A stretch of DNA of 37,764 nt from contig JWZX01003411.1 in assembly GCA_001275005.1 (NCBI GenBank), positions 1-37,764 of the forward strand. The letters run 5' to 3'. The position numbers were made by a program, and so were the translations under genes. Origin of the DNA: Chrysochromulina tobinii. Its lineage: Eukaryota. The notes below the pieces were generated by a model. It ran no database searches and had not been told where the DNA came from. It saw only the letters and a program-made list of their open reading frames with translations. Within the stretch, counting starts at the first letter, position 1. Every line of letters starts with the position of its first letter. Shown piece by piece: positions 20,958 through 27,424 of the stretch.

Positions 20958-22139
20958 TCAACACTGTCTCTCTCTCTCAGCGCCGTTTTCCAGTGGTGAA
21001 AGCCTTTCCTTGCCCCGCGCTTGCTCCAAATACCCGTCGTCCTCGAACTCGTCAAACCCCTCGCCCTCCGACACGGCGGATTCCTTCGGGGTGGCGAGGC
21101 CGTAGCGCTCCTCGGCAGCACCCTGGCGCGCGAGGGCCGGGTCGGTGCGCACGTCGTCGAGCTCGGCTTGAAGCGTGCGCGGCAGCTCACGGCTCACCGG
21201 CGTCCCGAGCAGCATGGGATGCAACGCGTAGGCCGCGGCGCCGACGAACATGGTGAGGCAGCCGAGATAGCGCGTCGGCCCCCATGTCTGCAGCTCGCCG
21301 AGCAAGATGGCGGAGAGCAGGATGAGGAGGACGATGCGGAAGTTGCCCAGCACGGCTGTGCCCACCGACGAGAATGTACGTACCGCCTGCATCAGCACCA
21401 CGTTATACATGACAGCGAGTATGCAACCACCCAGCACGATGACCGCCGTGGCCTGGGGCTTGTGCAGCGCAAAGCGTTGCAAGCCCTCCATCTCCTGCTG
21501 GGCGACCGCCTCCATCGCCATGAGCACGGCAAAGGCCACCGGGCCCGTGTAGAACGTCAGTTGGAACGAGTCGTGCTTTGAGGACATGAGCCTGCCCGAG
21601 AGAGACATCTGGGCAGACGACATGAGCACCGAGGCCGCGCACATGCTCACGCCCCACGCCTCGCCGTATTCGGAGCCGGTGAAGACGACGCACATCAGCG
21701 ATACGGTCACGAGCAGCAGGTATGCCGCGCCTACCGGCGTCGGGACCCGCCGCTCGAGGCAGAACGCGAAGCACGCCACGCACACTGGGATGGCGGCTCG
21801 GATGGCCTGGTTAAGTGAGAGCTCAATCGACACGAGCGACGCATTGTTGAGCGCAATCTGCGGCCCGTTGACGGCGCCAATAATGAGCAGCGCCCGCCAG
21901 TCCCTGCGCCAATTGTCCAAGTGCGTGCCCTTGTAGCCCTCTTTCAGAAGCATGAGCGGGAGTAACGCGACTGAGCCAAAAATCATGTGCGACGCAGTGA
22001 GCAGAATAGGAAATCGGAAATGGTACTGGCCAAGCGCCCATCGGTTGAGCATGTTGAGGGACGTGTTGAGCAGAAGATATGCTAGAGCCACGGCGATTTT
22101 GCAGGGCGGAGAACGCTCGAGTCGCGAGAGCTCGGGCAT
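20958..22139 (-). CDS. Triose-phosphate/nucleotide-sugar transporter (TPT/DMT family)
   Basis: LNRWAL...FRFPILLTASHM, LNNASL..I.LSLNQAIRAAIP, TFSSVGTAVLGNFR; about 10 hydrophobic segments and an acidic tail. Confidence 0.92.
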   Translation of the reverse strand: MPELSRLERSPPCKIAVALAYLLLNTSLNMLNRWALGQYHFRFPILLTASHMIFGSVALLPLMLLKEGYKGTHLDNWRRDWRALLIIGAVNGPQIALNNASLVSIELSLNQAIRAAIPVCVACFAFCLERRVPTPVGAAYLLLVTVSLMCVVFTGSEYGEAWGVSMCAASVLMSSAQMSLSGRLMSSKHDSFQLTFYTGPVAFAVLMAMEAVAQQEMEGLQRFALHKPQATAVIVLGGCILAVMYNVVLMQAVRTFSSVGTAVLGNFRIVLLILLSAILLGELQTWGPTRYLGCLTMFVGAAAYALHPMLLGTPVSRELPRTLQAELDDVRTDPALARQGAAEERYGLATPKESAVSEGEGFDEFEDDGYLEQARGKERLSPLENGAERERQC

Positions 22140-22350
22140 TGTGCATTAATTTGCTACTTATAGCGCCCGATACGACGCGCCGAAACGACCGAACCCACCG
22201 GCCATGTGCCCGGCACCCACACATGCGAGCGGCAGCGCAGCGCCCCATGGCGGGCGCCCCGCGGCCGCTCCATGGCGTCACGAGACATGCACACACGGGC
22301 AACGCGCGCGCTCGCCACGAAATAAGCTCAACGCTGCAATCACAAGTCGC

Positions 22351-24494
22351 TCATTCCGTCTTCGTCTGCAGGACGGTCAAGCTCCCCTCGGCGCTCTCGA
22401 TCACATTGACAAGCTGCTGGAGGCGCGACGTGATGTCGTCGAGACCCTCGGTGTTCACGGCCATCACCGTGAGCGCGACGGAGGACGTGCGCTTGAAGTT
22501 GAAGGAGAACTCGCCGCGCTGGTCGTTGGGCTGCACCGAGAAGGCTGTGATCTCGAAGTCACCGCCGCGCTTCTCGATGATCTCGAGCGCCTGGTTGATG
22601 AGCCCGGAGTCGAAGAGATGACCTTGGAGCAGCAGCTGACGAGAGGGCCAGCCCGTGCTGCTCGGGCCCGACTTGGATTGCGTTGCGGCTGCCTCGTCGC
22701 CAAGGCAGTGCGCCTGCGTGGGGGCGGCGACGCTGCGGTGAGCACCTGCATGCGAGGTCGACTCCCCACAGGGTTGCGTGCGAGGTCGACTCCCCACAGG
22801 ATCCGACAGCGACTCGCCTGCGTGAGGGCACCCCGAAGGCGTTCGTGGAACTTCTGGCCGAGGGGGACGAGAGGCGAACGGATCCCGCCGGGTACCCTGC
22901 ATGCAATCGGCGCGCGCGCGAGCGTGAGCACGGCAATGGCTGGGGGCTGGGATCGGACCGAAGGCATCCAAGCCCCAACCTGCATGCAATCAGGGCCTCA
23001 GGCACCCAGCCTCGATCGAGTCCTCCCAAGCGCCGAACAAGGCATTCCAACAGCGGCCCGGCAGGTGGGCCGGCAGATGGCCCGGCAGGTGGGCCGCCAG
23101 ATGGGCCGGCAGGCGGGCCGCCAGATGGACTCGAGAGGTCCATCTGCCACAGACTCGGCGACAATCTCGGCGACAATCTCGCTCCAAAACAGCTCTCACC
23201 GACCCATCTGATGGAGGCACCACTTGACTGGGATAGGATTGGCTTCGCTGAAGAGATCGCGATGCAGCGCCGCCAGCGGCTTGTCCTCCAACTCCGCCAC
23301 GTCTCGCTTCCCGGCCTTGGCCGCGGACATCACCTGCCGAGCGCGAGTCGAGTGTGCGAGAGGCTCACGAAGGGTGGGGCGTGCCTATGTCCCGCGGCCT
23401 ATGTCCCCTAAGTCCCGCGGCCTATGTCCCCTAAGTCCCGCGGCCTATGTCCCCTAAGTCCCGCGGCCTATGTCCCCTAAGTCCCGCGGCCTAAGTCCCG
23501 CGGCATCAGCATGCAATCAGCATGCAATCAGGCACCTTCGCGACGCTCTTGGGAGCCACGTTCGCCGTCACAGAGATGACCCCATCGCCTCCCTGTAGCA
23601 CGTAGTCCCTCGCCATCGCATCCTCGCCTGTCAAACACAGCGCACAAGCTCAGGACGTGGCGGCAAGGACGCAGCTAGGGTGCGGCCCACCGACAAGGGA
23701 GCTGCCGTCGGAGCCGCTCCAGTGGCCTTTCGGCGCTGTGCGGTGCAGGTGCAATCGCGCGGTGCGGTGCCGGTGCCTCCATGCGACAATCTCGGCGACA
23801 ATCTCGCACCTGAGTACAACTTGAATTCGTCATCACACACGGCGCGCATGGGCGCGACGCGCGTATTGTCACCAGTCGCATCCTTGAGGCCGCGGATCAT
23901 TGGGTGGCGTGACAGCACGATCGTCGTCTCCACCGAGAGGTCGACGCCAGTCCGGCCCGGCACGTTGTAGAGCACGATCGGCAGGTCGCTCGCGTCGGCG
24001 ATCGTCGTAAAGTGCTTGATAAGCCCGGCCTGCGTGGGCTTGACGTAGTAAGGCGTGACGATGAGTGCGGCGTCCGCGCCAAACAGCTTGGCCTGCTTCG
24101 TCATCGCGATCGTGTCCGTCGTGCTGATCGTGCCGGTGCCGACAATGATCGGCAGCTTGCCGCCAATCTCGTCGCGCGTCGCCGCCAACACCTCTGCGCG
24201 CTCGTCATCGGAGAGGGTGGATGCCTCACCCGTTGTGCCGAGGATGACGATGCCGTTCGTGCCTTCGCTCACGTGCCACTGCAAGAGCTTACGCAGGCAC
24301 GGGATGTCTACGGTGCCGTCATCCTTCATTGGCGTGACGAGGGCAACGAGCGAGCCGGCCGGCAGCGGCATCCCGGCCATCATCTGCGCGGACAGCGCTA
24401 GTCGCTGGCCGGGCAAGGAATACGGGCGCACCGCCGGCATGTGGAAGCCCGTCGTTGCGCCGAGCAAGATGAGGGAGCAGGCCATCATCGCCAT
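22351..24494 (-). CDS. dapA: Plastid-targeted 4-hydroxy-tetrahydrodipicolinate synthase (DHDPS) fused to a C-terminal LKR/SDH-linker (Saccharop_dh_N-like) domain; exons 24494-23810, 23627-23536, 23333-23200, 22896-22818, 22713-22351 (450 aa)
   Basis: [59 protein letters not shown] and [10 protein letters not shown] assemble in frame over three GT-AG introns; a fourth, GC-AG intron joins the last exon, which encodes [27 protein letters not shown]. The N-terminus is a signal peptide followed by G-FH. Confidence 0.88.
22714..22817 (-). other. GC-AG intron (104 nt) with the 10-nt direct repeat CACGCAGGCG spanning both junctions
   Basis: CAG|GCGAGT...CCCCCACGCAG|GCG; a phase-0 join puts the last 121 codons in frame. 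Confidence 0.7.
23057..23128. repeat. 24-nt intronic tandem repeat x3 in dapA intron 3 (22897-23199)
   Basis: CCGGCAGGTGGGCCGGCAGATGG-like units. Confidence 0.85.
23383..23503. repeat. 23-nt intronic minisatellite in dapA intron 2 (23334-23535)
   Basis: GCCTATGTCCCCTAAGTCCCGCG, about 4 full copies plus partial copies. Confidence 0.9.
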
Positions 24495-24687
24495 CTTCCT
24501 GATGAGACCTGCCGCGTGGGAACGCGGACAATGCAGGGTTCGCGTACCGGTACTGTAAGTTGATTGATTGCGAGCGTAGGCGCGTAGGTTTCGCTTCGCG
24601 CCGTGGTCGGTTGCGCTTCGTGAGACTCTTGCCTGTGTGACCGCTATTTCCGATTTCTTTTTGTGAGACTGTGAACGATTTTTTTCC

Positions 24688-25130
24688 ATGGACTGCTCCC
24701 CGCTACCGCCTCCGCTGGGAGCCGGAGGCGTGCCAAAGATATCGCGGCTCAGTGTGGAAGAGACACGCGAGGTGCAGCTCCAGCGCGTACTCGAGAATAA
24801 ACTGCCGTCGCTCGAGCAGGTCGTGCGAGAGCTCATAGAGCCACTCGCCCCGGAGCTCATGCAGGTGTGGATGCTAGCACTCAGTTCTCGCACGAACAAT
24901 ACAAATTGCTCCGCGAGGAACTGTACCCAAAGTACATCGAGCTATTGGAGGAAACCCTGGAGATCCTGCTTGCCGAAAGCGGATCGTCCGTGGATGAGGT
25001 GTTCGAGTTGGCCAAGGCGGCCGGTGAGCGCGGGCAGCCGTGGCCATGCACCGAGTTCCTGGCCGCTGCCGAGGACTTTCACTCTTTTCTCGCTCTCGTG
25101 CAGAGCTCCATCAAAGTCACCACACGATGA
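24688..25130 (+). CDS. Small BART (ARL2-binding/CFAP36-like) domain protein split over two frames
   Basis: Second frame FSHEQYKLLREELYPKYIELLEETLEILL...EFLAAAEDFHSFLALV resembles a BART domain. The frames join through acceptor AG 24884 with a donor at 24820 or 24865. Confidence 0.55.
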
Positions 25131-25645
25131 GCCAGGATACCCTCACCTGAGACTTGATGCTGGCGCTCACGATTTTCGCACGCATGTTCGTGCTGTAGCT
25201 CTCCGTAGGACCGGGCTCGACTATGAACTGAGAGACTCGACTTGAACTTTTACCCTCACGATTTGTCACCCTCCAACGTAAAAATATGATTGAAATGCGA
25301 GGGAGATGATTTCACGAGATTGCTCCACTTATTTGCATATTTTGGGACGATGACTCGGTCGCGCGCGCCGCGCACACACGCTGCGCGACATTGGTCATTG
25401 CGGAACCCTGAGAGACACCACACACACAACAACGAGATGCACGGCACGGCATGACTTCTTGCCCCGGTCAGACGACAGTCGCCCCCCCCCCCCCACACAC
25501 ACTTGCGTGTGACGATGATGAGTCTGACAGAGGCTCACAGAATGGAAACACTGTGGGAAGCTGAGGCCACACCTCGGTGGCCAAGTCGGCCTCGATGTCG
25601 ATGCCCTCAGGCGGCCGGTCTGCCGCGGCCGCCTTCTCCCGAGCC

Positions 25646-26629
25646 TTAACCGCCGGCCGCCTTTGCTGCGGCCACCTTCTCCCGAGCCTTTGCCGCCTTT
25701 GCCTTCGCCTCTGTCAGCTGCGCCTCAGCCTGGGCTAGCTCCGCCTCAGCCTGCGCCACCCCGCGTTCCGCGGCTTCCCAATCATCCTCAGCGGCCAGCT
25801 CTTCATTAGGCTCGTCCTCGGCCTTCTTGCCCTTCTTCTCAGAGGGCGAAGCACCCTTCTTGCCCTTGCCCTTCTTGCTCTTTGTTCGCTCAGTCGTGAT
25901 GCCATCAGCATCCTCAACGTTGACGGGGGAGGGCTTCTTGAGATGCGGAACGATCGGCGAGGCAGCGTCGATCTCAGCCAGCCTCGCCTTCAGCTTGGTG
26001 TGTTCTGCCTGGAGATCGAGCCGCTCTTGCTGCTCGAAGATGCCAATGAGGTACGACTTTTTCATATTCATGTCTCCTGCGTACACCATGTCCATCGCCA
26101 TCTGCCACGGCGTCTTGTTCGCGGGTGGCAGCGACTTGTCGATCTCCGCGCCATACTGGATGCACAGCTTGACGCACTCCTTGTGCTTCTTGCGCATCGC
26201 GGTCTGCAGGCCGGTGCTGCCGTCGAGACGCGGCTTGTTCACGTCTGCGCCGGCTTCGCAGAGCATGCGCAAGCACTCAACATTATTCTTCGAGCATGCG
26301 ATGTAGAGGGGAGTGCCACCATCCTGCGAGTTCGGTGTGTCCAAGTTGGCGCCGCGAGCGATGAGCAGCTTTAGGCAGCTCGGGTGGTTCTCCTGGCACG
26401 CGAAGAAGACCGGCGTGATGCCGTGCTTACCCGCGACGTTCGGATCGGCGTTGGCCTTGAGCAGCACGTCCACACAGCTGGTGTGCCCGTAGCAGCAGGC
26501 CATCAGCAGCGGCGTCGCGCCATCCTCGTCGGTGACGTTCACGTGCATGCCGTTTTCGAGGCAGGCCTTGAGCTCATCGAGACGGCCATGCCTCGCAGCT
26601 GCACGGAGTGCCTGCGCGTCGTCCGCCAT
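25646..26629 (-). CDS. Ankyrin-repeat protein, paralogue 1
   Basis: Ankyrin repeats GATPLLMAC, GITPVFFAC, GGTPLYIAC, GSTGLQTAM; charged/coiled-coil tail. Confidence 0.9.
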   Translation of the reverse strand: MADDAQALRAAARHGRLDELKACLENGMHVNVTDEDGATPLLMACCYGHTSCVDVLLKANADPNVAGKHGITPVFFACQENHPSCLKLLIARGANLDTPNSQDGGTPLYIACSKNNVECLRMLCEAGADVNKPRLDGSTGLQTAMRKKHKECVKLCIQYGAEIDKSLPPANKTPWQMAMDMVYAGDMNMKKSYLIGIFEQQERLDLQAEHTKLKARLAEIDAASPIVPHLKKPSPVNVEDADGITTERTKSKKGKGKKGASPSEKKGKKAEDEPNEELAAEDDWEAAERGVAQAEAELAQAEAQLTEAKAKAAKAREKVAAAKAAGG

Positions 26630-27424
26630 CGTCGCTCCAGGCGTGCTCCATTTTGCAAGTTACAAGACTTCCAAATTCGCCCTCAAACTTCTGCGGCATC
26701 AAATCTTTTAAACCCTCACACTCGCTTGCCACGACGCACGCGCGGCGTAGTTGCAATACACATAAGACTCAAAACGGCGCGTTTGACGTTTCTGATTACC
26801 AATTGCGGTAAGTCCGCGGATTCGTGTTTTGGAACTTGTGCCCCGTCGGAACCCGGGTGCTGCGCCATGGCGGACGACGCGCAGGCACTCCGTGCAGCAG
26901 CGAGGCATGGCCGTCTCGATGAGCTCAAGGCCTGCCTCGAAAACGGCATGCACGTGAACGTCACCGACGAGGATGGCGCGACGCCGCTGCTGATGGCCTG
27001 CTGCTACGGGCACACCAGTTGTGTGGACGTGCTGCTAAAGGCCAACGCCGATCCGAACGTCCCGGGCAAGCATGGCATCACGCCGGTCTTCTTCGCGTGC
27101 CAGGAGAACCACCCGAGCTGCCTAAAGCTGCTCATCGCTCGCGGCGCCAACTTGGACACACCGAACTCGCAGGATGGTGGCACTCCCCTCTACATTGCGT
27201 GCTCGAAGAATAATGTTGAGTGCTTGCGCATGCTCTGCGAGGCCGGCGCAGACGTGAATAAGCCGCGTGTCGACGGCAGCACCGGCCTGCAGACTGCGAT
27301 GCGCAAGAAGCACAAGGAGTGCGTCAAGCTGTGCATCCAGTATGGCGCGGAGATTGACAAGGGGCTGCCACCGGCGAACAAGACGCCGTTCCAGATGGCG
27401 ATGGACATGGTGTACGCGGGCGAC
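26072..27424. repeat. Inverted repeat: 558-nt arms (26072-26629, 26867-27424) with a 237-nt spacer
   Basis: The arms are the ankyrin-coding regions: 4 amino-acid differences in 186 codons and roughly 20 nucleotide differences by eye. Confidence 0.95.

Follow-up and report, generated by a model that had tools for sequence, protein, structure and literature searches.

A spliced DHDPS-PF04455 fusion found across algal lineages, with a predicted regulatory role for the added domain

The dapA gene in the window, a 37,764-nucleotide stretch of the Chrysochromulina tobinii assembly (contig JWZX01003411.1), encodes a DHDPS that carries a C-terminal domain of the Pfam family PF04455 (Saccharop_dh_N). 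The fusion is real and widespread; a regulatory role for the domain is a prediction. Entry into lysine synthesis is through DHDPS, a feedback-controlled enzyme targeted in crop biofortification and herbicide work. The architecture is already known insofar as automatic annotation assigns both Pfam families to such proteins, naming them simply as the enzyme. Our search of the open-access literature, with subscription journals outside its range, found no description of a DHDPS-PF04455 fusion, and no DHDPS carrying an ACT-type domain was evident in it.

The dapA model on the minus strand has five exons, which together form an open frame of 1,353 nt and 450 aa (Table 1). All four introns were seen as joints in assembled RNA contigs, taken from 6 of the 14 runs that contain the stretch; these six have separate study codes, are all mixed-culture metatranscriptomes from 2019 and may be one campaign. 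Introns 1 to 3 are GT-AG. The initial annotation had proposed that the last DHDPS helix is joined through a GC-AG intron to the exon that follows, and this join was found spliced in all six runs: each has an RNA contig that skips intron 4, and the junction across it runs from 22710 to 22815, with 83 letters on the shorter side. Read unspliced, the exon-4 frame continues for >100 codons of unrelated sequence before a stop. In runs X15 and X18, whose type is unrecorded, intron 4 is present unspliced, as expected of DNA. The 10-nt direct repeat common to the two ends of intron 4 allows the joint to slide by 10, giving 11 possible placements, all of which yield the same mRNA; only 22817-22714 starts with GC or GT and ends with AG. 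As the initial annotation had supposed, the last exon belongs to the dapA transcript: RNA contigs bridge 22710 and 22815. The database protein P0096 is identical to model residues 3-450. No RNA contig among those checked covers the middle of intron 4, a comparison in which a rare unfused isoform could be missed, as contigs drop rare forms. The fusion of dapA with Saccharop_dh_N is thus confirmed. An artefact or a separate last-exon gene is largely ruled out by the RNA joints, the shared architecture, the identity to P0096 and the motif spacing in related proteins.

Table 1. Features of the fused dapA gene, in positions of the window
Feature	Position	Strand	Evidence
Exon 1 (presequence, bulk of DHDPS barrel)	23810..24494	-	Pfam DHDPS E 3.5e-62; RNA contigs 23809-24519
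Presequence, likely bipartite and plastid-directed, ~aa 1-40	24375..24494	-	Motif scan
Arg99, equivalent to E. coli His56	24198..24200	-	Alignment to E. coli DapA and 3pud
Ile123, equivalent to E. coli Asn80	24126..24128	-	Alignment to E. coli DapA
Asp127, equivalent to lysine-site Glu84 of E. coli	24114..24116	-	Alignment to E. coli DapA
Lys204, equivalent to Schiff-base Lys161 of E. coli DapA	23883..23885	-	Alignment
Exon 2 (DHDPS)	23536..23627	-	RNA joints 23626/23809 and 23330/23533
Exon 3 (DHDPS C-terminal helices)	23200..23333	-	Pfam DHDPS E 2.3e-06; RNA joints
Exon 4 (final helix of DHDPS; lacks a stop)	22818..22896	-	RNA contigs 22815-22897
Intron 4, GC-AG, 104 nt, phase 0, 10-nt direct repeat at ends	22714..22817	-	
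Exon 5 (linker and PF04455 domain)	22351..22713	-	Pfam Saccharop_dh_N E 6.4e-12
Variable linker, ~20 aa, closing with conserved W-P	22645..22713	-	W 97%, P 94%
PF04455 Saccharop_dh_N domain, 97 aa	22354..22644	-	Pfam E 3e-12; model pLDDT 88.6
10-aa motif at the strand 1-helix 1 turn, candidate ligand loop	22594..22623	-	Near-invariant in fused, LKR/SDH-type and ArgZ-type sequences
TGA stop	22351..22353	-	3' UTR contigs extend to 22122-22168

Several further features of the locus were observed. A contig retaining intron 3 (22868-23228) stands next to the spliced form in all six RNA runs examined; pre-mRNA, library DNA and regulated retention are alternative sources of it. Short tandem arrays lie inside the introns at 23384-23499 (23 nt, five copies), 23055-23128 (24 nt, three copies) and 22747-22800 (28 nt, two copies), and run X15 is missing 83 letters of the 23-nt array. 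In the cluster of the database protein P0003, 9 of 14 members are gene calls of 285-287 aa; the one short call inspected, P0092, reads exon 1 into intron 1, so that such calls hide the fusion.

By family score and catalytic residues the window protein appears to be a DHDPS. It scores 305.8 bits with the TIGR00674 dapA model, above the equivalog cut-off of 206.15, and the NAL, KDGA and HpaI models all fall under their own cut-offs. Besides the Schiff-base lysine, alignment to E. coli DapA finds the equivalents of Thr44, Tyr107, Tyr133 and Arg138 retained. The same residues are conserved throughout the 94 fused proteins that we compared with E. coli DapA for these counts and those of the lysine site, with the proteins covering each position as denominators: T44 in 79/80, Y107 in 81/82, Y133 in 82/82, R138 in 83/84 and K161 in 85/86. 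The P0003 model, built on an alignment of 71, has a pLDDT of 88 and matches proteobacterial DHDPS structures with a TM score of 0.94-0.95 over the target. At E. coli position 162, beside the catalytic lysine, all 84 fused proteins covered have Asp; elsewhere Glu stands there, in 10 of 11 unfused sisters and in all six His56-type relatives.

The lysine site is a different matter from the catalytic one. The classical lysine-inhibited enzyme has His or Glu at position 56, Asn at 80 and Glu at 84, and the window protein has Arg, Ile and Asp. Among the fused proteins, 80 cover position 56, with Lys in 70 and Arg in the other 10. Of the 81 with a residue at position 80, 77 have Ile, 3 Val, 1 His and none Asn, and none of the 81 with a residue at position 84 has Glu. 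In the accessible passages of the two sources, Lys or Arg at position 56 is a marker of lysine-insensitive DHDPS (PMC5109050), and N80I and E84K are desensitizing changes in plant DHDPS, N80I being the lysine-overproducing change of tobacco (PMC8821502). Because positions 56, 80 and 84 are all replaced, classical lysine feedback is predicted to be missing from the fused DHDPS.

Searched against longer proteins, the last exon had 89 matches, of which 86 have DHDPS plus PF04455, one PF04455 alone and two LKR/SDH; a full-length search added eight further fused clusters, bringing the family to at least 94 clusters. Named members come from Prymnesium parvum and Haptolina brevifila, both haptophytes, Pseudopedinella elastica, Aureococcus anophagefferens and a Nitzschia RCC80 dataset, with the species names taken partly from transcriptome labels, which can be contaminants. 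The same architecture had been suggested as something to look for in haptophytes, where the Prymnesium and Haptolina members now provide it, and the ESM Atlas holds a 53-member eukaryotic cluster with both families in which Haptophyta are most frequent. The spacing between two motifs is 64-76 aa in 90 proteins.

A tree of the DHDPS part, calculated by a quick method with SH-aLRT support only from 41 fused and 19 unfused or truncated sequences and rooted on E. coli, places 54 algal-type rows in one clade (support 100). Adjacent to it stand six sequences, including one with the label Chromatiales, in which His56 and Asn80 are retained. Within the algal clade are 11 unfused proteins (support 89; labels Fibrocapsa, Heterosigma, Chrysophaeum, Aureoumbra and Calcidiscus), and all 41 fused proteins fall in one group (support 96), together with a 312-aa Haptolina entry whose sequence stops at the last helix and a 322-aa unfused protein on a long branch. 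The unfused algal sisters have Arg56 and Ile80 in 11 of 11 cases. Since they too are without the site, its loss most likely preceded the gain of the domain, and the DHDPS tree is compatible with a single gain. We infer that His56 and Asn80 were lost from a gammaproteobacterial-type DapA in algae and that the domain was afterwards acquired once, in one sub-lineage; those passages of a study of diatom DAPA that are available report a gammaproteobacterial origin and are silent on fusion (10.1101/2020.10.01.322594). Strict compensation, in which the site was lost because the domain had arrived, is ruled out by the 11 sisters. That they lack site and domain both also counts against the domain being indispensable.

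Both Pfam families expected in the 450-aa model were matched, and they are the only ones in the 448-aa protein. There PF04455 scores 47.3 bits (46.2 for the last exon alone) against a gathering cut-off of 23.5. A bifunctional LKR/SDH has both catalytic domains on one chain; this chain does not, and it stops at 22351. The domain is nearly as conserved among fused proteins as the enzyme, with a median identity of 0.69 versus 0.75 and 43 of 95 columns conserved at ≥90%; the linker has a median pairwise identity of 0.29 and 1 conserved column in 20. In P0003 numbering, G340, L342, D344, L347, I348, N349 and S386 are near-invariant in all three enzyme contexts, namely fused, LKR/SDH-type and ArgZ-type. 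The polar residues D344, N349 and S386 are thus common to enzymes that all handle basic amino acids. Conservation of D361, N372, D373 and the loop 370-387 is confined to the fused group; the loop has low pLDDT in the monomer model. On the enzyme side, residues of the DHDPS C-terminal helices are conserved in the fused proteins only (E. coli numbering): of 91 proteins, 89 have Arg at 241, all have Arg at 281 and 83 have Cys at 291. They may form a docking surface for the domain or, given a single fusion origin, may be inherited passengers. In the ESM Atlas, P0003 residues 331-429 lead to a cluster of 3935 PF04455-only proteins (92 aa, 73% bacterial, score 0.88), which may be stand-alone modules or fragments.

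The initial annotation had linked the last exon to the region between the two catalytic domains of LKR/SDH. The Pfam match and the grouping in a domain tree uphold that relation, but it is not unique, as PF04455 is also found in ArgZ/AgrE and in MJ1480-type ornithine cyclodeaminases, to which the profile connects the domain with a sequence E of 2e-12. A domain scan of 1.84 billion representatives gave 71 matches; 55 of the 57 checked with Pfam carry PF04455, the long ones being LKR/SDH, and a profile search returned the same two architectures among the best 120 of 214 matches. The domain tree covered 21 of 100 fused, 39 of 82 LKR/SDH-type and 13 of 120 prokaryotic ArgZ-type frames over 104 columns, a sampling that left out archaeal and most non-cyanobacterial PF04455 members. 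In it the fused domains are one group (91/87, not starred), and fused domains and LKR/SDH linkers stand together against the prokaryotic group at 100/100. The domain was likely recruited from an LKR/SDH linker. Across 185,579 prokaryotic genomes, the form of the motif with Phe occurred in one stretch, with no confirmed relative; beside the Leu form, no DHDPS match occurred in the at least 120 prokaryotic frames listed, which represent about a third of the collection; and a plasmid search for the motif gave one chance match. A prokaryotic fusion or donor is not supported by these three scans.

The domain had also been described as possibly ACT-like. Its predicted topology agrees: the model runs beta-alpha-beta-beta-alpha-beta (E2-8, H15-25, E29-36, E54-61, H65-81, E88-92), which is the ACT topology of ~80-90 residues, but fold matching does not tell an ACT domain apart from its other ferredoxin-like counterparts. 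MJ1480 (3mgj) matches with Z 13.6 and rmsd 2.0 over 84 of 86 aligned residues (Foldseek TM 0.77), placing the model in the PF04455 fold, and AgrE (6lrf) with Z 11.8. Next are 2nyi (Z 10.2), 1u8s (9.8), 3p96 SerB (9.2), 6dzs (8.4), 6wo1 AHAS (8.3) and 1zpv (8.1), with aspartokinases at 7.6-7.8; 1zpv is titled as an ACT domain protein, and the others we take to be ACT-bearing proteins. M20 peptidase dimerization domains reach Z 8.4-10.1 (6c0d: Z 10.1, rmsd 2.7, 87 aligned), and designed ferredoxin folds and aIF2-alpha match the domain as well as ACT proteins do, so that ACT proteins (Z 7.5-10.2) interleave with M20 dimerization domains and designed folds. Foldseek ranks the matches in much the same way, with many rows for M20 dimerization domains and with PGDH at E 8e-4. 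Compared with E. coli IlvH, the domain profile aligned over 62 columns at a pairwise P of 5e-4 and a probability of 30%, the start of the ACT match falling on the SGL part of the 10-aa motif; 2f1f gave a profile match at E 0.036. The ACT regions of E. coli LysC and SerA gave no significant alignment with the domain profile, and no Pfam ACT family matched the domain at E 10. As modeled, the domain resembles an ACT domain in shape and placement and is a candidate member of that family.

Action in the plastid had been part of the original proposal. A motif scan finds a likely bipartite presequence, consisting of a hydrophobic signal ending in TTG-F and a transit region free of acidic residues, from which the location itself is inferred. 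In the fused family, the scan found an ASAF-like motif after the hydrophobic stretch in 31 of 39 Met-initiated N-terminal extensions of ≥25 aa; the meaning of this motif is taken from the available passages of 10.1101/2020.10.01.322594. The layout suggests that the fused DHDPS is directed to the complex plastid.

Around the gene, Rfam at gathering score gave no matches over 21500-25500, so that no riboswitch was found there. An EamA-family transporter gene (20958-22142, minus strand, E 5.8e-13) starts ~200 nt past the dapA stop, and the dapA 3' contigs, which reach 22122-22168, abut or overlap its 5' end. About 180 nt upstream of dapA is a divergent, RNA-covered gene (24667-25245, plus strand); the frame tested has no Pfam match, and the product may resemble BART/CFAP36-type proteins. 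An ankyrin-repeat protein with a charged tail is encoded at 25646-26659 on the minus strand.

We propose, as a reading whose chances we put at even, that lysine feedback on this DHDPS acts through the appended domain, because a committed step without its usual site carries a conserved ACT-like module, likely from a lysine-degrading enzyme, with a polar, glycine-containing loop. ACT domains bind ligand at a loop in the corresponding position. In the proposed mechanism, a spliced, likely plastid-targeted DHDPS without the classical lysine-feedback residues would be inhibited when its C-terminal ACT-like domain bound lysine. The GHLFDxGLIN loop of paired domains would hold the amino acid, and its binding would be transmitted to the active site via the DHDPS C-terminal helices or an oligomer change, both by analogy with aspartokinase, PGDH and AHAS. 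Against this reading, 11 of 11 unfused algal sisters manage without site and without domain. Lysine is also not the sole candidate ligand, because conservation of the motif is just as high in ArgZ/AgrE, whose substrates are arginine and ornithine. Our literature search found no binding or kinetic data for any PF04455 domain. That plant LKR is activated in a lysine-dependent manner speaks for the reading, but this effect is described as acting via phosphorylation, not the linker (PMC7253579).

DHDPS activity depends on quaternary structure, and the domain could instead be a ligand-free dimerization or stabilizing module that sets the oligomeric state of the enzyme. The M20 dimerization domains are among its best non-family fold matches, the fused-only residues of the DHDPS C-terminal helices would suit a fixed interface, and the conserved loop 370-387 has low confidence in a monomer. 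We nonetheless consider this unlikely: the most conserved polar and glycine positions are in the strand 1-helix 1 loop and recur in three unrelated enzymes whose partners differ, a pattern more in keeping with a small-ligand site than with an interface for one partner, and the unfused sisters seem complete without the domain. Somewhat further down we would place an allosteric sensor of another nitrogen metabolite (arginine, ornithine, saccharopine or glutamate), possibly an activator, that ties lysine synthesis to nitrogen status. The motif is near-invariant in ArgZ/AgrE-type sequences, the domain opens the TIGR00300 ornithine cyclodeaminases, and the fused-specific D361, the PND loop insert and a change of His to Gln in 24% indicate that the site has diverged from the LKR/SDH form; LKR/SDH linkers are the nearest relatives, however, and the domain sits on an enzyme that commits to lysine synthesis and is without its lysine site, which makes this improbable.

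ACT-like folds often mediate protein contacts, and there is a slim chance that the domain docks a partner protein such as DapB or aspartokinase, or a pathway complex in the plastid, in the manner of the stand-alone ACT subunits that regulate AHAS. The fused-specific conserved loop and the W-P motif are surface candidates, but LKR/SDH would be an unlikely partner if the compartments differ, as we assume they may. An artefactual join (template switching at the 10-nt repeat, or merged gene calls) or a neutral passenger domain is highly improbable: the repeat at the intron ends with its GC donor, six RNA runs that may be one campaign and database calls stopping at 285-287 aa would favor it, but the short call inspected reads into intron 1, the frame is kept, both domains occur in 86 clusters from several lineages, the motif spacing holds in 90 proteins, and the domain is far more conserved than the linker.

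The classical rule predicts that the algal fused enzymes are unregulated, and a conserved appended domain would be a different control in abundant marine algae. A broader proposal, to which we give somewhat less than even chances, is that PF04455 is an unrecognized ACT-type sensor of basic amino acids and that algae with red-derived plastids moved this module from the lysine-destroying to the lysine-committing enzyme; one module would then switch catabolism on and synthesis off, a second, independent route to lysine control of DHDPS. If true, it would explain the conserved inter-domain region of plant LKR/SDH and the middle domain of ArgZ/AgrE. The fusion places PF04455 on one enzyme that is simple to assay. 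What the LKR/SDH inter-domain region does thereby becomes open to direct test, with the unfused sisters as natural controls.

Compared with known DapA (EC 4.3.3.7; PF00701, TIGR00674), the fused protein has the same catalytic Thr44, Tyr107, Tyr133, Arg138 and Lys161, but it adds a C-terminal domain of ~100 aa and an N-terminal presequence, and His56, Asn80 and Glu84 are replaced. The nearest solved DHDPS structures, from Burkholderia (6mqh), Pseudomonas (3noe and 3qze) and Acinetobacter (3pud), are 44-50% identical, and the solved DHDPS among the Foldseek matches listed have ~290-305 residues and no added domain.

The inter-domain region of plant and algal LKR/SDH (AASS) belongs to the same Pfam family, PF04455, and has the GHLFD-GLIN motif with Phe and ~30-46% identity. 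In LKR/SDH, however, the domain sits between two catabolic dehydrogenases, whereas in the fused protein it is C-terminal on a biosynthetic aldolase, and it differs from the linker by a conserved insert between strands 2 and 3 and by a conserved Asp361. In the part of a 2010 paper that is accessible, the LKR/SDH inter-domain region is conserved and its function "not yet understood" (PMC3017810). The best structural matches are the middle domain of ArgZ/AgrE (6juy, 6lrf-h) and the N-terminal domain of MJ1480 (3mgj; TIGR00300), which have Leu for Phe in the motif, no insert and other host enzymes. ACT feedback enzymes (aspartokinase, PGDH, the AHAS regulatory subunit and SerB) share the topology of the fused domain and, as described in the available text of PMC10464499, likewise attach a small domain to an enzyme that commits to amino acid synthesis; the fused domain differs from theirs in having no Pfam ACT match, a weak or absent sequence match and a ligand that is putative.
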